Assembly: GCA_965112635.1 (NCBI GenBank)
Contig: OZ218778.1
Coordinates: 243,666 to 307,665 of the forward strand
DNA: 64,000 nucleotides
Direction: 5' to 3'
Source: an uncultured bacterium
GTDB lineage: Bacteria; Oederibacteriota; Oederibacteriia; Oederibacteriales; Oederibacteriaceae
Shown piece after piece: positions 5,670-18,874 of this stretch (positions are counted from its first letter, which is position 1; each line of letters opens with the position of its first letter). A model generated the notes under the pieces. That model was not told the DNA's origin and ran no database searches. It saw only the letters and a list, made by a program, of their open reading frames with translations. Position numbers and translations under genes: made by a program.

Positions 5670-5948
5670 TCATTTATATATTTCTCTTCTGTGCCCAATA
5701 TCAATAATAATGACCAACAGCACATCGGATTTGATCATATAAATGATCCGATAACTCCCTACCCGGTAGGAATACTGACCTTTTAAATCCCCATGAAGGG
5801 GCTTGCCCAGATACGGTTCCCTTTCCAGGCCGTGAAGAGCATTGCTGATCCTTTCATAAAGCGGCCTGTCTCGTTTTGCAAGCTTCTTATAAAATTTTTC
5901 TGCATCTTCCTGCAGGACAACAGTGTATTTATTCAATTTCTTTTTCAA
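5670..5948 (-). CDS. type II toxin, RelE/ParE family
   Basis: 92-aa ORF, RelE/ParE-like C-terminus (YRIIYMIKSDVLLVIIIDIGHRREIYK); overlaps upstream antitoxin gene by 20 nt; AT-rich relative to neighbours. Confidence 0.85.
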   Translation of the reverse strand: MKKKLNKYTVVLQEDAEKFYKKLAKRDRPLYERISNALHGLEREPYLGKPLHGDLKGQYSYRVGSYRIIYMIKSDVLLVIIIDIGHRREIYK

Positions 5949-6195
5949 TCTCCTCTAATGGACGCACCTTGCCTTTCTTCACATTTTCCAGTCCCGCTTT
6001 AATTCTTTTCATGGCACTGCGGTCATTCAAAATATCAAGGGTTTCCATCAAGGATTCATAATCCTCATAGCTCATAATTTCAGCCACAGGTTTGCCGTGG
6101 TTCGTGACCGTGACCCTTTCCAATTTATGGTCTATCTTCTTAAGAACGCCGGGCAAGGTTTGCCTCAATTCCCTGACGCTCAAAACATTATTCAT
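5929..6195 (-). CDS. type II antitoxin, Phd/YefM family
   Basis: MNNVLSVRELRQ N-terminus typical of Phd/YefM; GGAGG RBS 8 nt upstream of ATG at 6195. Confidence 0.85.
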   Translation of the reverse strand: MNNVLSVRELRQTLPGVLKKIDHKLERVTVTNHGKPVAEIMSYEDYESLMETLDILNDRSAMKRIKAGLENVKKGKVRPLEEIEKEIE

Positions 6196-6256
6196 CTGCA
6201 ACACCTCCTCATTATGAAAATTTTATGTTAAGTATAGCAGGAAAAGGGTTAATTTG

Positions 6257-6307: not shown

Positions 6308-6414
6308 CGACATAAATACGCAAGTAAGGAAACGCATTATTATAACTGGGCTTGCGCTTGTTTTGTCGTAAAGCTATTACGACATAAACACCCTTGAGTG
6401 GAAACGCATATTAA
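6308..6414. repeat. two degenerate ~35-bp direct repeats with 72-bp period (CGACATAAA...GGAAACGCAT)
   Basis: read directly; only two copies, roughly three-quarters identical. Confidence 0.4.
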
Positions 6415-6429
6415 AATCTGCAAGGGTGT

Positions 6430-7479
6430 TTAGCAGATCCTCGGCAGTTGGTCTCCGCTGAGCATGTCCAGGATCCTTCTCACGCCGATTTTGCTCTCCA
6501 GCGTGACCTGGCCCTTGGCGGCATCCAAAACCTTTCCCACCACAGCCGCTTCTTTACCAAGAGGATGGGCCCTCATCAAGTTAAGGGCTTTTTTCTCGTC
6601 TTTTTCCGGCACAAACAAGGCAAACCTGCCCTCATTGGCCACATACAAGGGATCCAGCCCCAGCATTTCACAGGCCGCCTGCACTTGATTGTTTACTGGG
6701 ATGGCCTTTTCTTCCAGGGCTATTTCCCTGCCAGAGGCCTGGGCTATCTCCACCATTGTCGTAGCCAATCCGCCCCGGGTCAGGTCGCGCAAACAATGGA
6801 CCTCGACCTCGGCCTTTAAGAGCTCCAGCACCAGGCCGGACAAGGGAGCGCAGTCGCTCTGGATGGTGGTTTCAAAATTCAACCCTTCCCGGCTGGCCAT
6901 GATGGCCATGCCGTGCCTGCCCAAATCTCCGTTGATGAGGATCTTGTCTCCGGGTTTGATGCTTTTGGGATGGATAACCAGCTTGTGGTCTATGGCTCCC
7001 ACCCCGGCGGTATTGATATACACGCCGTCCCCCTTGCCTTTGTCCACCACTTTGGTGTCACCGGTCACGACCTGCACTCCGGCCTCTTCGGCTGTTTTGG
7101 CCAGGGACTGGACGATTTGCCACAAGGTTTCCATGGCCAAACCTTCTTCCAATATAAAGGAAGCGGAAAGATAGAGCGGCCTGGCCCCGCACATGGCCAG
7201 ATCATTGACCGTGCCGCACACAGCCAGCTTGCCTATATCCCCGCCGGGGAAAAATAAAGGTTTGACCACGAATGAGTCCGAAGTGAAGGCCAGTTTTTCC
7301 CGTGTCGTGGGGAACACCGCGCTGTCGTGCCCTGCTCCAGGCAGGTCATTTTTAAAGGCGGGCAAAAACATTTTTTCGATGAGCTGGTGCATGAGTTTGC
7401 CGCCGCTGCCGTGGCCCAGGGTCACGACCGGATATTGGGCTATGGGGATGGGGCAGGTCAGATTAAATTCTTTAGGCAT
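6430..7479 (-). CDS. hypE: hydrogenase maturation carbamoyl dehydratase HypE
   Basis: HypE-like sequence ending in the characteristic C-terminal PRIC; AAGGAG RBS before ATG at 7479. Confidence 0.9.
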
Positions 7480-7501
7480 AAATATGCTCCTTAAAAATTG
7501 T

Positions 7502-7572
7502 GTCCAAAGTCTCAAGTCCAATGTCCAAAGTTTTTGTGTAACTTTGAACTTTAAACTTTGAACTCGGAACTA
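7502..7572. repeat. hypD-hypE intercistronic repeats (GTCCAAAGT x2, AACTTTGAAC x3) able to form stem-loops
   Basis: read directly in the 105-nt gap between hypD stop and hypE start. Confidence 0.4.
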
Positions 7573-7584
7573 TCATTACTCCAA

Positions 7585-8670
7585 TCAATGCTTCCTATAG
7601 TTGTAATAAGCTGCGCAGGCGCCCTCAGGCGACACCATCGGCGCACCCAGCGGCGTTTCCGGAGTGCAACGCGTGGCAAAAGCCGTGCATTCCTTGGGTT
7701 TTTTGATGCCCTGCAGGACCAGACCGCTGATACACTCGGGGTCTTCGCTCACCGCCAGGTCTTGGAGGTCAAACTTTTTTTCCGCGTCATAGGCCGCATA
7801 CTGGGGCCGCAGACCTAGGCCGCTCAAGGGGATCTCTCCGATACCGCGCCATTTGCGCGGTACGATCTGAAAAACTTCCTTGATGAGTGTCTGGGCAGGT
7901 AGATTGCCCTGCCTCTGGACACTGCGGGTATATTGATTCTCCACTTTGGCTTCGCCTTTTTCCAGTTGAGCGATGCATAGATACAGCCCCTCTAAAATAT
8001 CCACTGGTTCGAACCCCGTGACCACGATGGGAACTTTGAATTTCGCCGCCAGCGGTTCATACTCGGTATAACCCATGACCGTGCACACATGGCCCGCGGC
8101 CAGGAAGCCGTTGATCCTTTGGTTCGGGGAACTCAGGATCGCCTCCATGGCCGGCGGCACCAACACATGAGAGACCAGAATGGAAAAGTTCTTTATCCCC
8201 TGTTCCTTGGCCTGGAAAACCGCCATGGCATTGGCCGGCGCCGTAGTCTCAAACCCCACGGCAAAAAACACCACCTGTTTCCCTGGGTTTTCCCGGGCCA
8301 GCTGGAGACAATCCAGGGGTGAATACACCATGCGCACATCCCCGCCCTGGGCCTTGGCCAACAACAGGTTCTCTTTGGTCCCGGGCACGCGCATCATATC
8401 GCCGAAAGAGCAAAAGATGATGTCAGGCCGATGGGCCAGCTGGATGGCCTTATCGATGAGCTCGACGGGTGTCACGCACACCGGACATCCCGGGCCGTGG
8501 ATCAGGGTGATCCCCTTGGGCAACAGCTCATCCACTCCGTACTTGACGATGGAATGCGTCTGTCCGCCGCACAGTTCCATGATGTTCCAGGGCTTGGTGG
8601 TTATCTTCTGGATAAGTCCGGCGATATGGCGGGCTTGTTCCGGGTCACGGTATTCGTCGATAAATTTCAA
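7585..8670 (-). CDS. hypD: hydrogenase maturation factor HypD
   Basis: 361-aa ORF with HypD motifs (CGGQTHS, GPGCPVC); apparent TTG start overlapping the hypC stop. Confidence 0.9.
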
Positions 8671-8912
8671 CCAATGCCTTCCCTTCCCAGGGCATCCATC
8701 TCACGAAAAGCTTCGTAGACTTTGGCCGCTTCTTTTTCATCCAACCGGCTGATGGCAAAACCCACATGCACATACACATAGTCGCCGACCTTAGCCTCAG
8801 GCACATAGGCCAGGCAGGCCTCTTTGATCACGCCTTCGTAACTCACTTTGCCCATACGGGTCTGGGCGTTCTCTTCAATGCTAATGATCTTACCGGGTAT
8901 GGCTAAACACAT
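8667..8912 (-). CDS. hypC: hydrogenase maturation factor HypC
   Basis: 81-aa ORF starting MCLAIP, the HypC/HupF hallmark. Confidence 0.9.
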
Positions 8913-8927
8913 AATTAAATACCTCCC

Positions 8928-8974
8928 AGACCAGCTTGCAAATTTTCAACATACTTTCCCTCTAAAGCTGGTCT
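8928..8974. promoter_or_regulatory. 10-bp perfect inverted repeat (AGACCAGCTT / AAGCTGGTCT) in the hypC leader
   Basis: read directly, 16-60 nt upstream of hypC start. Confidence 0.3.
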
Positions 8975-9150
8975 TTATCGTAAAGTGCTTTCAACAACCT
9001 TATTATTATCATTATTTCACGAATCATTAGTCCGGGCAACCGCTTCAAGTATTATCTGATGAGACTTTTTCGGCGGACTAATGAGGTTGACTTTCCCCTC
9101 TGGGCTTGTTAGCTTTTTTTTGCACTGGGCAACAGCCCAGCCCGGAGCGC

Positions 9151-9178
9151 CATGCTCATGCATGCGTGCTTTAGCACG
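9151..9178. promoter_or_regulatory. composite palindromic motif copy C (CATGCTCATGCATG + CGTGCTTTAGCACG), ~240 bp upstream of hypC
   Basis: read directly; related to copies at 1940-1969 and 2051-2091. Confidence 0.4.
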
Positions 9179-9212
9179 AGCCAAAGGATCATTCTTGGCA
9201 AGCGAAGGTGCA

Positions 9213-9252
9213 GTTCGTATGCTATTCTATAAAAAATTAATAGCATACGAAC
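9213..9252. promoter_or_regulatory. candidate NikR operator: perfect 14-bp inverted repeat with 12-bp spacer, containing GTATGC-N19-GCATAC
   Basis: read directly; 50-90 bp upstream of the OMP gene that heads the nikR/nickel-uptake block; overlaps a possible -35 TTGGCA / -10 TATGCT. Confidence 0.45.
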
Positions 9253-9304
9253 CAGCATCAATTATTCAATTTTTTGTAAAGAACTTTAAATTAGGAGGAA
9301 ATAA

Positions 9305-10229
9305 ATGTTCCCCTCCAAAGTCTATCTATTCATTTTCACACTGCTCCTATTATCCTTGACCAATCAGGGCCTGTGCCATGTGATACCCACTACTCCTAAT
9401 GATGACTGGAATCCAGTTTCCACCGGCCCCATCAACACCTGGACCGCTTCCCTGGAACCCGCCGGGGAACTTAACACTCAGCTCTTTGTTTTTTACACCA
9501 TGACCACGGGATTTTATGACGGGGCGGGAAAGTTCTGGTCATTGCCGGATAACACCACCAAGACCCAGTTCCAGGAGCAGCTGTTCCTCCAATATGCTAT
9601 CAACCCTATGTTTGAAATGGATGCCCAACTTTCCACTTTTCAAAATACGCTCAAGGTCGGCGACCAGACTTCCTATTATAGTGGCCCGGGTGACTCGATC
9701 TTCTTTTTGCGTTATGCCATCGCCACCGAAACTCATCCTTACCCCTTCCTGACCGGCGTACTCCAGCTCAGGGTTCCCTCGGGCAATTTTCTTAACCAAA
9801 CCTCCACCCTAAGGACTTCTGATCTCACCGGCACGGGAAGCGTGGGCAGTGGGTATGGGGTTGATGGCCACCAAAAAACTCAAACCATTCTTGCTGCATA
9901 CCGACCTCATCTACAATGTACCCTTACAGACCCAGACCAATATCACTTCTATTAACTACGGCGACTCCGTGAATTATGACCTGGGTGCCGAATACTTTAT
10001 GTCCTACGGATTTAACCTGTCCATGGAGATGAATTATATCTACGAGGCCACTGGCAGTATTTATGGCTTATTCACTCCCGGCGTTTCGGGTAACTACCTC
10101 ATGCTGACCCCGGGACTAGGCTGGGCCGTAAAAAATACCCAGTTACTACTCGGCTATCAATGGGGACTCTATGGCGTCAACACCGATGCCCTAAGTTCCT
10201 ATGTCTTTACCGCCTCGGCTCCGTTCTAA
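9305..10229 (+). pseudogene. putative outer-membrane beta-barrel protein, reading frame broken at an A6 run near 9874-9879
   Basis: signal peptide MFPSKVYLFIFTLLLLSLTNQG, C-terminal aromatic residue; two overlapping ORFs (9305-9955, 9849-10229) rejoin if A6 is read as A5. Confidence 0.5.
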
Positions 10230-10267
10230 AAAAACACTCGTCGGACAAAACTTAAGGAGGCAAAATT

Positions 10268-10684
10268 ATGGCAGGTTTAGTAAGATTTGGCGTATCCCTG
10301 GAAAAAGAACTTCTCAAAAAATTTGATCGACTTATCACCCAAAAACACTACACCAACCGCTCCGAAGCCCTGCGCGACCTCATCCGGGAAGAATTGGTCA
10401 AAGAACAATGGAACCAGGGAGACGAAGTGGCCGGCGCCATTACCCTGATCTACAACCACCACCATAGAGACCTGACCGATAAATTGACTAACATTCAACA
10501 TGATTATGGAGACTGCATCCTGTCTTCCCAGCACATCCACCTAGACCACCACCACTGCCTGGAGATCATCGCGGTCAAAGGGTCCCCCAGCCAGGCGCAA
10601 AAACTGGCCGACACCCTCCACGCGGTTAAAGGAGTCATGCATTCCAGCCTCAGCATGTCCACCACCGGCAAAGAAATACATTAA
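10268..10684 (+). CDS. nikR: nickel-responsive transcriptional regulator NikR
   Basis: 138-aa ORF: ribbon-helix-helix N-terminus (RFGVSLEKELLKKFD) plus His/Cys-rich C-terminal domain (HHHRD, HLDHHHC). Confidence 0.9.
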   Translation: MAGLVRFGVSLEKELLKKFDRLITQKHYTNRSEALRDLIREELVKEQWNQGDEVAGAITLIYNHHHRDLTDKLTNIQHDYGDCILSSQHIHLDHHHCLEIIAVKGSPSQAQKLADTLHAVKGVMHSSLSMSTTGKEIH

Positions 10685-10816
10685 ACCGTATTTTCACTCG
10701 TAACTCCCAGTCCATATCTCCTCAAAAATAATGACCCTCAAACTCTTGACAGACCTACTCCTATGTGTTACTTTTCCAAAATTCGTGTTACTAATTATAC
10801 AAGAGGAGGATTTAAG

Positions 10817-13009
10817 ATGATGAAAAGCAATAAAACCAGGTTTTCCTTGGTCGGTTTTATTTTTTGTTCGCTATTGTTGTCCAACCCTAGCTGGGGGCAG
10901 GATGGCGCCAACAGCACCCTGGATGCATTGCGTCATGACAGCAGCCCTGCGGCAGTTACTAAGAGCGCTATACCTGTAAGTGTGACCAAGACCGCTGCAA
11001 CGGAGTCAACCGTGGCCGGTGAAGAAGTAGTGGTTAGAGGCAGGGCTGCCAACTTGCTGGGACTGGCAGACTCGGCCATGCAGGGCAGTGTCAGCCAGGA
11101 AGACCTGAGCCACCGTGCTTTGCTCAGGACGGGAGAAGTTATGGAAGCCGTACCCGGACTGCTCATCACACAGCACAGTGGTGACGGCAAAGCCAACCAG
11201 TATTTCAGCCGAGGTTTTAATCTTGATCACGGCACTGATTTTTCATTCAATGCTGATGATGTTCCTATTAACCTGCCCAGCAATGCCCATGGTCAAGGCT
11301 ATACAGACCTTAATTTCCTCATTCCCGATCTGGTTAAGGAAGTGAACTATTCCAAAGGACTTAATAGCGTTGAATACGGGGAATTTAATACCGCAGGCTC
11401 AGCCAATTTTGTTTATCCCAATACTCTGCCCCAAAATATCGCTTCTCTGACCATGGGAGAATGGGGATATCAGAGAGGGCTTTTGGCCGCATCCAACCCC
11501 TTGGGGTCAGGGAATTTGTTGTACGCCGTGGAAGTTTGCGGTTATGACGGTCCCTGGGATGTCCCGGAAGATAATAAAAAATATAATGGATTGCTTCGCT
11601 ACAGTTATGGAAACTCAGAGAGCAGGTGGGCGATCACGGCATCCCTTTATCAGGCTGCCTGGACCTCCACTGACCAGGTCCCGCAACGAGCGGTGGACGA
11701 GGGTCTGATCGATTTCTGGGGCAGCCTTGATCCGACTGATGGCGGTAAGACAAAACGCTACAGCGTTTGGGCAAGCTGGAATGGCCAATCCCAGGACTGC
11801 CAGTCCATGGTCATGGCCTATGAAACCTATTTTCATATGAATCTTTGGAGCAACTTCACCTATTTTACTGACGATCCTGTTCACGGCGACCAGTTTGAAC
11901 AGGAAGATGAGCGGTATATCACCGGCGCTAAAGCCAGGCAGATATACAACAACACTATCGCCGGGCTGGCCATGAAAAATGAGATCGGCGCGGATTTCCG
12001 CAATGATGACGTGCCCATCCTGGGCCTTTACGATACGGAGGCTCATATTCCGTGGCAAACCGTCCAGCTTAACCAGATGGTCCAAACCAGCGGAGCTCCC
12101 TATGCGGAAAATACCACTTATTGGACACCATGGCTGAGAAGTATTTTGGGATACCGTCACGACTTCTTCCATTTCAAAGTTAACGGTGCTACTCCTGCTA
12201 CCAGCGGAGAGGCTGATGCCAACATAGCCGAACCTAAGGTAGCCCTGGTGCTGCGGCCTTATGAAGGGCCGGTGGAGCTGTACGCCAACTATGGCTGGGG
12301 TTTTCACTCCAATGACGCGCGTATCATTGCGCCGGATGCTTTAAATCAGTTAAGCATTATGGGCAACAATGTGAACACCGCTCCCCTGGTCCACGCGGAG
12401 GGAGAAGAAGTAGGCGCCCGTTTCGGCTGGCAGAATTTATTTGAATCCACGGTATCTTTATGGCGCCTGCATCTGGATTCTGAATTGACTTTTGACGGAG
12501 ACGCGGCCGCTCCCAGTCCCAATGGGCCTTCTACGCGTAATGGGGTGGAATGGTCCAATTCCTTGAGGCCTAAACCCTTTTTCCTGGATTTCGACTACTC
12601 CTGGTGCCAGGCGCGGTTTGATCAGACTGCGTTAGATGATGATGGAGAGCACCCGGGTGAGTATGTGCCGGAGGCTCCGGTAAACATGGCTACAGCCACT
12701 TTAGGCACTGATCCCATAGAAGGCTGGTCTGCGGACTGTCGTTTGCGTTACTTTGGGGCAAGGCCGCTGGTACCGGATAATTCGGTGCAATCCAGCGACC
12801 TGACACTGGTAAGTCTTCGTGTCAGCCGTCAGCTGACGGAAAATCAATCCATTTTCTTCGATATTTTTAATCTTTTTAACCAGCGGGGTTATGATATTTC
12901 TTATTATTACGCCACAAGCGTACAGTCGGGAGCCCCGTCGATCCCGGACATAAACAGTAAACCCGCTGAGCCGCGGTCTTTGCGTGTGACCTGGCAGGAC
13001 CGTTTCTAA
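10817..13009 (+). CDS. TonB-dependent outer-membrane receptor, probably nickel/metal uptake by context
   Basis: signal peptide, plug-domain-like region, ~700-aa barrel ending in F; GAGGAGG RBS before ATG at 10817 (track ORF starts at 10763). Confidence 0.85.
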   Translation: MMKSNKTRFSLVGFIFCSLLLSNPSWGQDGANSTLDALRHDSSPAAVTKSAIPVSVTKTAATESTVAGEEVVVRGRAANLLGLADSAMQGSVSQEDLSHRALLRTGEVMEAVPGLLITQHSGDGKANQYFSRGFNLDHGTDFSFNADDVPINLPSNAHGQGYTDLNFLIPDLVKEVNYSKGLNSVEYGEFNTAGSANFVYPNTLPQNIASLTMGEWGYQRGLLAASNPLGSGNLLYAVEVCGYDGPWDVPEDNKKYNGLLRYSYGNSESRWAITASLYQAAWTSTDQVPQRAVDEGLIDFWGSLDPTDGGKTKRYSVWASWNGQSQDCQSMVMAYETYFHMNLWSNFTYFTDDPVHGDQFEQEDERYITGAKARQIYNNTIAGLAMKNEIGADFRNDDVPILGLYDTEAHIPWQTVQLNQMVQTSGAPYAENTTYWTPWLRSILGYRHDFFHFKVNGATPATSGEADANIAEPKVALVLRPYEGPVELYANYGWGFHSNDARIIAPDALNQLSIMGNNVNTAPLVHAEGEEVGARFGWQNLFESTVSLWRLHLDSELTFDGDAAAPSPNGPSTRNGVEWSNSLRPKPFFLDFDYSWCQARFDQTALDDDGEHPGEYVPEAPVNMATATLGTDPIEGWSADCRLRYFGARPLVPDNSVQSSDLTLVSLRVSRQLTENQSIFFDIFNLFNQRGYDISYYYATSVQSGAPSIPDINSKPAEPRSLRVTWQDRF

Positions 13010-13037: not shown

Positions 13038-13661
13038 ATGCAGACTATTTTGCAAAACTTGGCTCTGATCGGGGACGTCTGGGTCATCTACCTTTTGATC
13101 GCCGCAAGCCTGCTTTCTTTGGCGGTCATGGTGGAAAGATGGATGGTCTTCTCGCGTAACAGGGGAGATGTCACGGTTCTAATGGACGGATTAGGCGAAC
13201 GCCTGGAAAAAAAGGATATCAAGGGGGCTCTGGAATTTACCCGTGGTTTTCCCAATGTGGAGGGCAGGGTTGCCGTGGCGGGACTGGAGCATTTTTCCAA
13301 AGGCGCGGCTTCCGTGGAAGAGGCCATGTCCGCCAGGATCATCCGAGAGCGGAAGCATTTGGGGAAAAAACTGATCATCCTCAGCACGCTGGGCAATAAC
13401 GCGCCCTTTATCGGGTTGTTCGGGACCGTGCTCGGTATCATCAAAGCGTTCAACGACCTTGCGGTCAGCGGAAGCTCGGGGGTGTCCGTGGTCATGGCCG
13501 GCATTTCCTCGGCTCTGATCGCCACGGCATTCGGCATCGCGGTGGCTGTCCCCGCCGTCATAGCCAATAATTATTTCCGCAACCGGCTCAACGAGGTCAG
13601 ATCCAACGCCGAAGAGGTGTCCAAAATGCTTTTGCTTTACATCAAAGCGCAGGGAAAGTAG
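13038..13661 (+). CDS. exbB: MotA/TolQ/ExbB proton channel protein
   Basis: 207-aa membrane protein with ExbB/TolQ-like TM helices; AGGAGG RBS. Confidence 0.85.
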   Translation: MQTILQNLALIGDVWVIYLLIAASLLSLAVMVERWMVFSRNRGDVTVLMDGLGERLEKKDIKGALEFTRGFPNVEGRVAVAGLEHFSKGAASVEEAMSARIIRERKHLGKKLIILSTLGNNAPFIGLFGTVLGIIKAFNDLAVSGSSGVSVVMAGISSALIATAFGIAVAVPAVIANNYFRNRLNEVRSNAEEVSKMLLLYIKAQGK

Positions 13662-13670
13662 GAGGAAGCC

Positions 13671-14069
13671 GTGCAAAACTCTGAAGACGAACAGGAAATA
13701 GTCGGCGGCATCAATATCACGCCCATGGTGGATATCACCCTGGTACTGTTGATCATTTTCATGGTCACGGCGACCTTTATGGCGCAATCAGGCCTGAAAG
13801 TGAACCTTCCCAAGGCGGTCACTACCGAAGCGGCTTTCACCGCCAGCCTGACCGTAACCCTGGATTCCAAGGGTTATCTCTATCTGATGAAGTCACCCAT
13901 AGATGAGAAAGGTCTCAGGGCTGCCCTGCAGCACGAAGTCAGGCTCAATCCCGGCGTGAAAGTTACCATTGCCGCAGACAAGAAACAATATTATGAGCAG
14001 GTCATCCATATCCTGGACCTGGTCAAGCAGGCGGGTATCAGTAAAGTGGCGCTAGCCGCGGAAAGGTAG
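13671..14069 (+). CDS. exbD: ExbD/TolR biopolymer transport protein
   Basis: 132-aa ORF, single TM then periplasmic domain; GTG start with GGAGGA RBS. Confidence 0.85.
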   Translation: MQNSEDEQEIVGGINITPMVDITLVLLIIFMVTATFMAQSGLKVNLPKAVTTEAAFTASLTVTLDSKGYLYLMKSPIDEKGLRAALQHEVRLNPGVKVTIAADKKQYYEQVIHILDLVKQAGISKVALAAER

Positions 14070-14075
14070 GGCGGG

Positions 14076-14684
14076 TTGTTTTCTGTTTCCGGTGTGAATG
14101 GTGGGTGGCAGGACCCTGGAAGAAAAGATTTTTATCTGGGCGCCGTGGTGTCATTGGCCGTGCATCTGGCGCTGCTTGCCATTTTTTACTGTTTATTTTC
14201 CTACCTGAAGAACAGCGCGCCTGTGTCCATGGACCTGGACCTTTCCGTGGCCCCTGCTGTGGTTCCCTTGAGCCGTCCCGTGAAAAAAGAACATGTGGTT
14301 CCGCCCCAAGCCTGGGTGGCGCCTAAAGCTGGGATAGCTCCGACACCCCAAAATGTAAGTGAAACCGCCCAGCCGGTGGAAGAACAATATGTGCCCTCAG
14401 CCGTTACAGCGCTCAAGCCCCGCTGGTTAGACGGGTTTATTACCGATGAGGACTACCCGCCGCAGGCGCGGAGCAAAGGGGAAAAGGGAACGGTCAAGGC
14501 GGAAGTTTTTATTGATGCCTCAGGTATGGTCAAGGATCTGAAAATAGTCCAGGAAAGTTATCCTGCCTTGAATGAGGTGGTTTTGCACAAATTAAAGGAT
14601 GCCAAGTTTACGCCAGCCCGTGATGCCTCGGGAAAACCTGTGCCCTGCAAGATGTTGCTGCCCATTAAATTTGAATTGTATTAA
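14076..14684 (+). CDS. tonB: energy transducer TonB
   Basis: N-terminal TM, Pro-rich linker, TonB-like C-terminal domain; TTG/GTG start, exact start uncertain. Confidence 0.7.
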   Translation: MFSVSGVNGGWQDPGRKDFYLGAVVSLAVHLALLAIFYCLFSYLKNSAPVSMDLDLSVAPAVVPLSRPVKKEHVVPPQAWVAPKAGIAPTPQNVSETAQPVEEQYVPSAVTALKPRWLDGFITDEDYPPQARSKGEKGTVKAEVFIDASGMVKDLKIVQESYPALNEVVLHKLKDAKFTPARDASGKPVPCKMLLPIKFELY

Positions 14685-14766: not shown

Positions 14767-15786
14767 ATGCACATTCCTGACGGATATTTAGGACCGACCA
14801 CCTGCGGATTTTTTTATGTGGTCATGGTGCCGATCTGGATGACCGCTTCCCGCATGGTCAAAAAGACCCTCAAGGCCGGTCAGATCCCTTTTCTGGCCAT
14901 TGGCGCGGCTTTTAGCTTTGTCATTATGATGTTCAATGTCCCCATCCCCGCTGGCTCTACCGGCCACGCGGTAGGCGGCGCCTTGATCGCCATCCTGCTC
15001 GGACCCTGGGGCGCCTGTCTGACCGTTTCCGTAGCCTTGGTCATCCAGGCCTTTTTGTTCGGAGATGGCGGCCTGACCGCCATCGGCGCCAACTGCTTTA
15101 ATATGGCCGTCGTACTGCCCTTTTCTGCGTACCTTATTTACCGGCTCTTGTCCGGCTCCGCCCAAAAAAGTCCGACCAGAAATGTCTGGGCCGCGGGTAT
15201 CGCCGGCTACCTTTCCATCAATATCGCCGCTCTGTGCGCCGGTGTGGAGTTCGGCTTACAGCCTTTGCTCTACCATACCGCGGATGGACAGGCTCTTTAC
15301 TGCCCGTTCGGCTTGAGCGTTGCAGTGCCGGCCATGCTGGGCGGACACTTGCTGGTTTTTGGGTGGATAGAAGGCTTGGTCACCGCTCTGCTGGTCAAAT
15401 ATCTCCAACAGCACTCTCCTGAAATGCTCGCTCGCCCCGCCCTAAAAACTTCCACCAAATTATGGGCCTGTCTTGGCATCCTTGCGGTGCTGACCCCGTT
15501 AGGACTGCTCATCCCCGCCTGGCTCCACGGAGGAGACGCCTGGGGTGAGTGGGCGCCTGAAGAAATACAAAAAATCGCCGGCTATGTTCCCCAGGGCCTG
15601 CAAAAACTTTCCGCGCTCTGGAATGCCCCTTTGGCTGACTATGGTTTTAAAAGCTGGGAAGGAAAAGGATTGGGATACTCAAGCCTAGCCTATATAATAT
15701 CAGCCGTTCTAGGCGCAGCCCTGATCGCTTTTTGCGTCTGGTTATTGTTCAAATATCTCTTCCGGAAAGGCTTTTCCAAAAAATGA
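14767..15786 (+). CDS. nikMN: ECF-type Ni/Co transporter substrate-capture protein, fused NikMN (CbiMN-like)
   Basis: starts MHIPDGYL (CbiM/NikM hallmark); 339 aa with extra C-terminal TM region consistent with an N-component fusion. Confidence 0.85.
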   Translation: MHIPDGYLGPTTCGFFYVVMVPIWMTASRMVKKTLKAGQIPFLAIGAAFSFVIMMFNVPIPAGSTGHAVGGALIAILLGPWGACLTVSVALVIQAFLFGDGGLTAIGANCFNMAVVLPFSAYLIYRLLSGSAQKSPTRNVWAAGIAGYLSINIAALCAGVEFGLQPLLYHTADGQALYCPFGLSVAVPAMLGGHLLVFGWIEGLVTALLVKYLQQHSPEMLARPALKTSTKLWACLGILAVLTPLGLLIPAWLHGGDAWGEWAPEEIQKIAGYVPQGLQKLSALWNAPLADYGFKSWEGKGLGYSSLAYIISAVLGAALIAFCVWLLFKYLFRKGFSKK

Positions 15787-16589
15787 ATTTTGTGGAACGC
15801 ACTATCCTGGCTGCTCTTTCCCTGCTGAAAAATTCCATGTTCGCCGAGGATATCGCCCGCCAAAAAGGGCTCTTACAAACACTGGACCCACGGGTCAAGG
15901 CTGTTTCTTTGCTGGCCTTGATCGTGCTGGTCCTGTTCACCAAAAACTTATGGGTACTGGCTTGTATTTATGGTCTATGTCTGGTCCTGGCTATGCTATC
16001 GAGGATCCGCCTGCTGTTTTTCCTGGAGCGCACCTGGATCTTTATCCCCCTGTTTTCCCTGCTCATCGCCATACCTGCTCTTTTTAGTTTTGTATCACCG
16101 GGCCGGCCTTTGTTCTCCTGGGGGATATGGACCATCACCAGCCAGGGATTAGGCAGCGCCGTCATCTTTATCAGCCGCGTCATCACCTCGGTGTCCCTAG
16201 CCGTGCTTTTGAACCTGACCACCCGTCACCTGGAACTGCTCAAGGTCCTTAGGATATTCGGGATCCCGCAAATGTTCGTCATGATCCTGTCCATGAGCTA
16301 CCGTTATATTTTTCTTTTTGTGGAGATCATGGAAAACACCCACCGGGCCGTGCAGAGCCGCGTCGGCTCGGCCATTCATTATAAAAAAGGTCAGCACCTG
16401 GTGGCCTGGAGCATGGCTGGCCTGTGGAGCCGTTCAGTCGGCCTGCAGGAACAGGTGCACCACGCCATGCTCTCCCGCGGATTTCAAGGCGAGCCGGTCC
16501 TCCTGCACCGCATGAGCACAAGGTTCAGGGACTGGGCCTGGCTGGCCTGCGTTCTCGTCCTGGTAGTCTGTTTGTGGGGAGCGTCCTGA
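15783..16589 (+). CDS. nikQ: ECF transporter transmembrane (T) component NikQ/CbiQ
   Basis: polytopic membrane protein; ATG overlaps nikMN stop (ATGA). Confidence 0.8.
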   Translation: MNFVERTILAALSLLKNSMFAEDIARQKGLLQTLDPRVKAVSLLALIVLVLFTKNLWVLACIYGLCLVLAMLSRIRLLFFLERTWIFIPLFSLLIAIPALFSFVSPGRPLFSWGIWTITSQGLGSAVIFISRVITSVSLAVLLNLTTRHLELLKVLRIFGIPQMFVMILSMSYRYIFLFVEIMENTHRAVQSRVGSAIHYKKGQHLVAWSMAGLWSRSVGLQEQVHHAMLSRGFQGEPVLLHRMSTRFRDWAWLACVLVLVVCLWGAS

Positions 16590-17401
16590 TGAAACCTATC
16601 TTTGAGTTTCAAAAAGTCAGCTATGCTTACCTGGGTAAATTCCCGGCCCTGCGGGACATCACTCTAACTATCCCGGCTGGAAAAATGGTCACCCTGGTCG
16701 GCGCCAACGGTTCGGGCAAATCCACGCTCCTGCAGATGATGGACGGTCTTTTGTTCCCGGACAGCGGGACCATAGTTTTTGATGGCAGACAGCTGGCCAG
16801 CGCTGAACTGGAAAAACAGGACTTTTCCAAGACCTTTAGACAAAAGGTAGGACTGGTCTTCCAGAACCCCGACATCCAGCTTTTTTGTCCTACGGTCCGC
16901 GAGGATATTATTTTTGGTCCGCTCCAGCTGGGGATAGACGAAAAAATAGTGATGAACCGATTGGAAGAGTTGGCCGTAGCCCTTAAACTCACGCCTCTCC
17001 TGGACCGTGCCCCGCATCAGTTGAGCATCGGCGAAAAACGCAAGGTGGCCATAGCCTCCACCCTGGCCATAGACCCTGAGGTTTTGCTTTTGGATGAACC
17101 CACAGCCGGCCTGGACCCCATGACCACGGCTTCCATCCTGGAGATCCTGCTCACAGCCAATCAGTCAGGCAAGACCATTATTACAGCCACCCACGACCTG
17201 CATATTTTAGAGGAGATCGCGGACACAGTGTTCGTTTTCGGGCAGGATAAGACCATCGTCGCGGAAAGCACCCCCGAATCCATACTCAAGGATACGGACC
17301 TCCTGCAAGCGAACAACCTGGTGCATTTTCATCCGCACAGCCATAAAGGCAGGATGCACCAGCATCCCCACCAGCACCCGGACCACCACGAAGGAAGCTA
17401 A
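16589..17401 (+). CDS. nikO: ECF transporter ATPase NikO/CbiO with His-rich C-terminal tail
   Basis: Walker A GANGSGKST, signature LSIGEKRK, Walker B LLLDEPTAGLD; tail HFHPHSHKGRMHQHPHQHPDHHEGS; start overlaps nikQ stop. Confidence 0.85.
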   Translation: MKPIFEFQKVSYAYLGKFPALRDITLTIPAGKMVTLVGANGSGKSTLLQMMDGLLFPDSGTIVFDGRQLASAELEKQDFSKTFRQKVGLVFQNPDIQLFCPTVREDIIFGPLQLGIDEKIVMNRLEELAVALKLTPLLDRAPHQLSIGEKRKVAIASTLAIDPEVLLLDEPTAGLDPMTTASILEILLTANQSGKTIITATHDLHILEEIADTVFVFGQDKTIVAESTPESILKDTDLLQANNLVHFHPHSHKGRMHQHPHQHPDHHEGS

Positions 17402-17423: not shown

Positions 17424-17816
17424 TTATCTAAGCTGTTCTATCCGCTTTTTCAGCTCATTGAATACATCCTGGAAGCTTTGCCTTTGTTCTTCCTGGGTCA
17501 GGCCCGGCCTGGCCGGGTCAGGCAAGCCCCAATGTATCCTCTTGGCCTTGCCCAAAAATACCGGGCATTCCTCCTCCGCGCACAGGGTTATGACCGTATC
17601 CACCGTGGCGGGGTCTATCTCCTTCACGGATTTGGAGCGTTGTTGGGATAGGTCGATGCCAGCCTCCTGGGCAACTTGGATGGCCAGTGGATGGACCCGT
17701 GAAGGCTTGGACCCGGCGCTTTGCACCATGACCTCGGGCCCCAAGATATGCCTGGCCAATCCTTCAGCCATCTGGCTGCGCGCCGAATTGCCCACGCAAA
17801 GGAAAAGTATCTTCAT
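17424..17816 (-). CDS. arsC: arsenate reductase, LMW-PTP/thioredoxin-coupled type
   Basis: 130-aa ORF with CVGNSARS P-loop. Confidence 0.85.
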
Positions 17817-18874
17817 GGCTTCCCTTCCTTAAAATAGGCCCTCTTGAAATACAACGCCACATTGACCAGGCTGATCAAGACCGGCACCTCGACCAAGGGG
17901 CCGATGACCGCGGTAAAGGCCACTGCCGAACCAATGCCGAACACGGCCACCGCTACCGCGATGGCCAGCTCAAAATTGTTGCTGGCCGCGGTAAAAGACA
18001 ATGAAGCGGTCTGGGCGTAACCGGCCTTGAATTTTCTGCCCAGGTAAAAGGAGATAAAGAACATCACCACAAAATAGACCAGGAGCGGCATGGCGATACG
18101 CAGGACATCCAGCGGAATGCGGACTATGGTCCCTCCCCTGAGCGAAAACATCACGACGATCGTAAAGAGCAAAGCAATGAGCATGATAGGACTGATACGG
18201 GGAATGAATTTATTTTGGTACCACTCTTTGCCTTTGGCCCGGATCAGGAAGATGCGCGTGAACAACCCGGCCAGGAAAGGGATACCGAGATAGATAAAAA
18301 CGCTCTTGGCGATCTGTGCGATGGTCACGGGTACCGCGGCTCCGGCCAGGCCAAACCATCTCGGCAGGACCGTGATAAAGACCCAGGCAAATACGGAAAA
18401 AAACAGGACCTGGAATATGGAGTTAAAAGCCACCAGCCCGGCGCAGTATTCGCTGTCCCCGCAGGCCAGCTCGTTCCAGACAATGACCATGGCAATGCAC
18501 CGGGCCAGTCCTATCAGGATGAGGCCGATCATGTATTCGGGGTAGTGGCGCAGGAACAGGACAGCCAGGCTGAACATCAGGATAGGCCCAATGACCCAGT
18601 TGAGAACAAGGGACAGGATCAGGACCTTGATATTTTTGAACACATCTCCCAGTTCCTCGTATTTGACCTTGGCCAATGGCGGGTACATCATCAGGATAAG
18701 CCCGATGGCTATGGGAATATTTGTCGTACCCGAGGAAAAGCCGTTGACCAGAGATGAAATGCCCGAATAAAAATATCCTATGCCCACGCCCATCCCCATA
18801 GCCAGAAATATCCACAGGGTTAAATAACGGTCCAGGAAGGAAAGTTTTTTAAGAAGACTATTTGGGGGTTTCAT
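17813..18874 (-). CDS. acr3: ACR3-family arsenite efflux permease
   Basis: 353-aa polytopic membrane protein of ACR3 size and pattern; stop overlaps arsC start. Confidence 0.8.

Follow-up and report, generated by a model that had tools for sequence, protein, structure and literature searches.

A perfect palindrome at 9213-9252 of the window (the whole 64-kb stretch of DNA analysed in this work) is probably a lower-affinity autoregulatory operator of NikR, as predicted from its sequence and its context. The observations that bear directly on this reading are the sequence of the palindrome, its non-randomness, its gene context, the motif of the NikR box family and the fit of the inner register of the palindrome to that motif. 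The palindrome is most likely a common type of element whose half-sites are unusual (doubly variant and set in an extended dyad), belonging to a class of predicted operators that is well known. The original prediction had already proposed a NikR operator here. Its position, the adjacent nikR gene and the comparison of approximately 175 nikR loci speak for that proposal, but the E. coli-based reasoning behind it did not hold.

The arms of the palindrome, GTTCGTATGCTATT (9213-9226) and AATAGCATACGAAC (9239-9252), are exact reverse complements separated by a spacer of 12 nt, CTATAAAAAATT (9227-9238), and the 14-12-14 geometry claimed beforehand was therefore present, with fully complementary arms. 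The palindrome is the longest perfect spaced inverted repeat of the 64-kb window and is not a chance product. The chance expectation of such a palindrome is approximately 0.007 per window (our own arithmetic), and in 200 block shuffles no 14-nt inverted repeat was perfect at any spacer length up to 30 nt. The symmetry runs perfectly 6 nt outward past the inner heptamers (GTTCGT/ACGAAC) and imperfectly to 9207-9259. No other copy of the 14-mer was found in the window when up to 2 mismatches were allowed; a repeat or mobile element was discarded, as the 14-mer is confined to the two arms within 64 kb.

Divergent genes flank the palindrome: it sits in a 392-bp region with hypCDE on one side (minus strand) and an outer-membrane barrel gene followed by nikR on the other (plus strand). 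It ends 52 nt before ATG 9305, the start of the first gene of the nikR-containing cluster, in agreement with the claim that it lies upstream of the nickel locus. The sole regulator gene of the cluster is nikR (Table 1). A single additional A at 9838/9839 breaks the barrel gene of the window and leaves two ORFs (9305-9955 and 9849-10229). The window reads GGGAAGCG where L081 and L082, otherwise identical contigs from other assemblies, read GGGAGCG and harbour an unbroken gene encoding a 307-aa protein. Either the extra A is an error of assembly, or the gene is a real pseudogene in this assembly.

Table 1. Features of the nickel locus in the window and NikR-type boxes upstream of nikR in three relatives.
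Feature	Position	Strand	Remarks
hypE, hypD, hypC	6430-8912	-	Divergent; hypC (8667-8912) starts 300 nt from the palindrome
Promoter-like TTGGCA-N17-TATGCT	9195-9223	+	Promoter scan, 9/12 matches
Perfect 14-12-14 palindrome, GTTCGTATGCTATT-N12-AATAGCATACGAAC	9213-9252	.	Sequence reading and inverted-repeat search
Left NikR-type half-site, ATGCTAT (core pentamer TGCTA)	9219-9225	.	
Right NikR-type half-site, ATAGCAT	9240-9246	.	14 nt from the left half-site; site of 28 bp in all
PF13557-family outer-membrane beta-barrel gene	9305-10229	+	First gene downstream of the palindrome
nikR	10268-10684	+	138 aa; Pfam RHH_1 and NikR_C
Canonical NikR box (predicted), GTGTTAC-N13-GTGTTAC	10765-10791	.	14/14 to the consensus half-site; direct halves
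TonB-dependent receptor	10817-13009	+	True start ATG 10817, after a GAGGAGG ribosome-binding site
exbB, exbD, tonB	13038-14684	+	
nikMN fusion (CbiM and PDGLE), nikQ, nikO	14767-17401	+	ECF-type nickel importer
nikR-upstream box of L093, TTGACA...GTGTTAT-N13-GTAACAC			
nikR-upstream box of L097, GTGCTAC-N13-GTAATAC			
nikR-upstream box of L086, ATGCTAT-N13-GTAACAC			

Several further elements were observed around these genes. The otherwise A/T-rich region between hypC and the barrel gene contains a G+C-rich patch (9081-9200) with a CTGGGC-AACA-GCCCAG hairpin and a T8 run; this patch matched no Rfam family and no called gene. A perfect 12-nt inverted repeat, TAAACACCCTTG-N24-CAAGGGTGTTTA (6385-6432), overlaps the stop codon of hypE, with a toxin-antitoxin pair of the Phd/ParE type (minus strand, 5670-6204) approximately 180 bp downstream of it. 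Beyond nikO there are an arsenate-reductase-like gene (17424-17816) and an ACR3-type arsenite-permease-like gene (17813-18874), both on the minus strand and both judged from their translations alone.

The NikR protein of the window matched the P. horikoshii NikR structure 2bj1 (E = 6e-41), and the residues H-x-H...C of its nickel site line up with their counterparts in solved NikR structures. Its reading strand is LVRFGVSL. Of the relatives compared that carry canonical boxes, most have this strand too, and the core R-F-G/S-V/I-S is found in all. The corresponding strands are RFSVSL in H. pylori and RFSISI in P. horikoshii; that of E. coli is RVTITL (structures 1Q5V and 2HZV). With the strand RFGVSL, the operator class expected for the NikR of the window is GTGTTAC-like and not GTATGA-like. 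No NikR in the protein collection exceeds 76% identity to that of the window, and most of the near relatives that have a name belong to Candidatus Omnitrophota; our search found no literature on NikR in Omnitrophica.

Next to this protein, the boxes of the relatives define the motif. The published box consensus of the delta-proteobacteria is GTGTTAC-[N13/14]-GTAACAC (Rodionov et al. 2004, PMC545781). Approximately 90 loci other than the window were scanned with up to 2 mismatches tolerated and with each half free to take either orientation. The unique sites numbered 35 at N13, 10 at N14 and between 1 and 11 at each of 17 other spacings; most of these boxes adjoin nikR. The family motif covers the seven heptamer positions and, directly inward of them, a weak T-W-T preference, and there is almost no information in the outer flanks. 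Inverted, everted and direct orientations of the halves all occur in the family. Perfectly palindromic boxes were found in three relatives (L002, L022 and L043) with 10-12 nt per arm, and the 14 nt per arm of the window palindrome are at the upper edge of this range, not outside it. In many relatives GAA directly follows the half-site, while in the window it is displaced by 2 nt (ATAGCAT-AC-GAAC).

An orthologous copy of the palindrome was not found among the closest NikR relatives (74-76% identity), all of which have canonical boxes. Metagenome scanning with NikR recovered 80 loci, none above 68% identity, and scanning with the outer-membrane protein as query recovered no relatives. Homologues of the barrel protein belong to PF13557 and are 37-43% identical to it (39% in the case of L098). 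The gene order in every contig recovered with a barrel homologue is nikR, barrel gene, nikM, nikN, nikQ, nikO. The relatives harbour a NikR-type box directly upstream of nikR, and a second box directly upstream of the barrel gene whose halves are often direct, as in GTGGCACGAA-N10-GTAACACGAA. In the boxes between nikR and the barrel gene of L083, L086 and L093-L098 the halves are direct repeats 20 bp apart, not inverted ones.

The half-sites of the palindrome were then placed in register. In the inner register, ATGCTAT-N14-ATAGCAT (9219-9246), the half-site centres are 21 bp apart, approximately two helical turns. In the outer register, GTATGC-N20-GCATAC, they are 26 bp apart, approximately 2.5 helical turns. 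Only the first and the last base of the heptamer separate ATGCTAT from GTGCTAC, the variant with a TGCTA core (A for G at position 1, T for C at position 7), and each half of the window site agrees with the published consensus at 4 of the 7 positions. Half-sites were scored with a matrix made from the 35 N13 sites of the relatives, with the window excluded. The inner register scored +10.6 bits and the outer one (9217, GTATGCT-N18-AGCATAC) -10.9 bits, while GTGTTAC-N13-GTGTTAC at 10765 reached +24.8 bits and a site in a coding region (35233, N14) +11.1 bits. Among approximately 128,000 N13/N14 positions of the window the inner register ranks third, and no position in the intergenic region scores higher. 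Its 10.6 bits are a weak score, near the chance ceiling, and its N14 spacing is rarer than N13 among the relatives.

A second and independent line of evidence came from the variant halves. Four anchor heptamers (GTGTTAC, GTAACAC, GTAGCAC and GTGCTAC) were searched as exact matches in 1.2 Mb of loci, and their partner heptamers were recorded at spacings of 6 to 24. ATGCTAT/ATAGCAT was the partner in 5 unique cases (L001, L045, L059, L086 and L092), all of them at N13, and in none at the 18 other spacings. Since it is confined to N13 beside canonical halves, ATGCTAT/ATAGCAT is a real and recurrent half-site variant of the predicted NikR boxes. One of these cases, L001, is among the closest relatives in the genome collection (NikR 69% identical). 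Directly behind its nikR stands GTAACAC-N13-ATAGCAT, and the 11-mer TTAATAGCATA is common to L001 and the right arm of the window palindrome. Among the loci examined, the window is the only one in which both halves are of the AT...AT variant type.

In 966 kb of loci, a degenerate motif, RTRYTAY-N13/14-RTARYAY, matched 17 times at N13, 5 times at N14 and no more than twice (0-2) at any other spacing. The palindrome was its only match in the 64-kb window (0.00 expected), a match that is partly circular, as the motif was composed after seeing the window half-site; the independent tests are the matrix score and the partner heptamers.

The canonical NikR box predicted for this locus is the site at 10765-10791, which the original prediction had overlooked. 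This site is 1.5 kb beyond the palindrome, with nikR on one side and the TonB-dependent receptor gene on the other, and exemplifies what a strong site for the NikR of the window is predicted to look like. A TTGACA (10746-10751) is found upstream of it, 17 nt before TACTTT, and GAGGAGG and ATG 10817 follow downstream. The presence of this stronger box makes the palindrome a weaker and probably secondary operator. Both of its halves are sub-optimal, differing from GTGTTAC at the two outer positions, and a lower affinity than that of 10765-10791 is therefore predicted.

The palindrome also overlaps a promoter. The overlap with a TTGGCA/TATGCT pair, claimed beforehand, was borne out by the promoter scan, which recovered the pair with 9/12 matches; TTGGCA is at 9195-9200 and TATGCT at 9218-9223, and the -10 hexamer overlaps the left half-site. 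The boxes upstream of nikR in the relatives have the same arrangement, and in L086, L093 and L097 the left half-site likewise lies over the -10 of a TTGACA-type promoter.

We infer NikR binding, the affinity ranking and the transcription start. Nickel-loaded NikR, encoded 1 kb downstream, would bind as a tetramer, with one ribbon-helix-helix dimer on ATGCTAT (9219-9225) and the other on ATAGCAT (9240-9246). It would cover the -10 and the start region of TTGGCA-N17-TATGCT, and the operon of the barrel gene and nikR would be repressed (autoregulation). The box at 10765-10791 would control the receptor, exbBD-tonB and nikMNQO genes. With increasing nickel, the uptake genes would be switched off first, and nikR and the barrel gene only at higher nickel.

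The alternative that survives best, although we consider it unlikely, is an operator of another dyad-symmetric regulator, encoded elsewhere, that would read the full 14-bp arms or the outer TTCGTATGC and would target the barrel gene/nikR, hypCDE or both. The perfect symmetry 6 nt beyond the NikR-type heptamers would be accounted for by such a regulator, and so would the modest score of the palindrome (10.6 bits compared to 24.8 bits for the canonical box of the same locus). However, the cluster encodes NikR as its only regulator, and in every relative a NikR box occupies the place that corresponds to the palindrome, upstream of the barrel gene and nikR. Moreover, the inner heptamers are a variant met only at the NikR-box spacing, and the words of the outer arms did not recur in linkage with nikR in the 1.2 Mb of loci. 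There was no match to a Fur box in the window with up to 3 mismatches.

The family motif does not account for the six extra symmetric bases of each outer arm. A bolder reading, to which we give a small chance only, is a composite operator, with an extended or second NikR register or a second factor sharing the site, that would set for the operon of the barrel gene and nikR a response threshold other than that of the canonical box 1.5 kb downstream. Separately, the PF13557 barrel under its control would be a previously undescribed NikR-regulated nickel channel, conserved beside nikR-nikMNQO in several phyla.

It is improbable that the palindrome acts as an RNA stem-loop (for stability, processing or attenuation) within a long 5' leader of the barrel gene/nikR mRNA, or as a DNA cruciform. 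As RNA, the palindrome folds with -24.3 kcal/mol (z-score -7.9), and 5 further pairs (9207-9211/9255-9259) can lengthen the helix. A leader could start at a weak TTGACT-N17-TAGCTT (9088-9116), seen by eye and absent from the promoter scan. Against this, the best promoter (9195-9223) would start transcription within the loop, the stem is clear of the ribosome-binding site (9291-9296), and the boxes of the relatives at the same position are often direct repeats, unable to form hairpins. An Rfam search of 8600-10800 at a permissive threshold gave only a chance match to a CRISPR repeat (E = 0.82) and no riboswitch, the nickel-cobalt type included. An intrinsic terminator was rejected: the terminator scan was blank here, there is no U-tract, the first T-run is 17 nt past the stem and the flanking genes diverge.

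The register of the original prediction, in which NikR would read the E. coli-like hexamers GTATGC-N20-GCATAC, is highly improbable: GTATGCT resembles the enterobacterial GTATGAT at 6 of 7 positions (PMC545781), but the hexamers are separated by N20 (the heptamers by N18) instead of the enterobacterial N16 (N14), approximately 2.5 turns, the register has a negative matrix score and it was found in none of the relatives. The distance between GTATGC (9217-9222) and GCATAC (9243-9248) had been given as 19 bp; the actual gap is 20 nt, which exceeds the N16 of E. coli by 4 nt and not 3. The reading strand of the window NikR is RFGVSL and not RVTITL, and together with the 20-nt gap this led us to reject the enterobacterial class GTATGA-N16-TCATAC and the likeness to it that had been claimed.

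If the autoregulatory NikR operator is correct, it would add to the predicted NikR sites one from an uncultured bacterium, the nearest named relatives of whose NikR are Candidatus Omnitrophota. It would also mean that one locus has two operators that differ greatly in predicted strength, an arrangement that would permit a graded nickel control as in H. pylori, and it would further support ATGCTAT as a tolerated variant of the widespread GTGTTAC box. The PF13557 (Phenol_MetA_deg) barrel gene was consistently found between nikR and nikM with its own NikR box in several lineages (L083-L099), and this suggests that the barrel is a candidate outer-membrane route for nickel. We found no paper that links PF13557 to nickel. 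The linkage of the barrel gene, nikR and nikMNQO is the more useful by-product of this analysis. Neither the palindrome nor this linkage overturns current understanding.

Compared to known systems, the palindrome is nearest to the GTGTTAC-N13/14-GTAACAC class (PMC545781). As in this class, there are two 7-bp halves 13 or 14 nt apart (27-28 bp) with an A/T-rich spacer, a location in the promoter region before nickel uptake genes or nikR, a cognate NikR with the matching reading strand (RFGVSL) and nickel site, and a TGCTA core like that of the common GTGCTAC. Unlike in this class, G at position 1 is replaced by A and C at position 7 by T in both halves of the window site, the spacer has the less frequent length of 14 nt, the symmetry extends to 14 nt per arm, and the matrix score is less than half of that of the canonical site of the same locus.

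The E. coli nikABCDE operator, GTATGA-N16-TCATAC, is likewise a dyad over a promoter and mediates nickel-dependent repression of uptake, which in the window is predicted. The likeness of GTATGC to GTATGA is superficial: the register in the window is 4 bp too wide (N20), and the reading residues differ (RFGVS in the window and RVTIT in E. coli). The window site does not belong to this subclass. The same enterobacterial signal has been described as GTATGAT-[N13/14]-ATCATAC, with N14 at nikABCDE, in a paper that also points out that halves can be reversed (PMC545781).

In H. pylori, the NikR operators follow TRTTA-N15-TAWTA, with 20 nt between half-site centres, and NikR has a low affinity for the nikR promoter; TonB-dependent receptors and ExbB/ExbD/TonB are under NikR control as well (PMC5385501; references in PMC11247825). 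The organism and the half-site sequence differ from those of the window, where a similar hierarchy of affinities may be proposed by analogy. The pentamer cores are approximately 20-21 bp apart from centre to centre in both cases, and nikR, autoregulated through a weaker site in H. pylori, would be controlled in the same way in the window.
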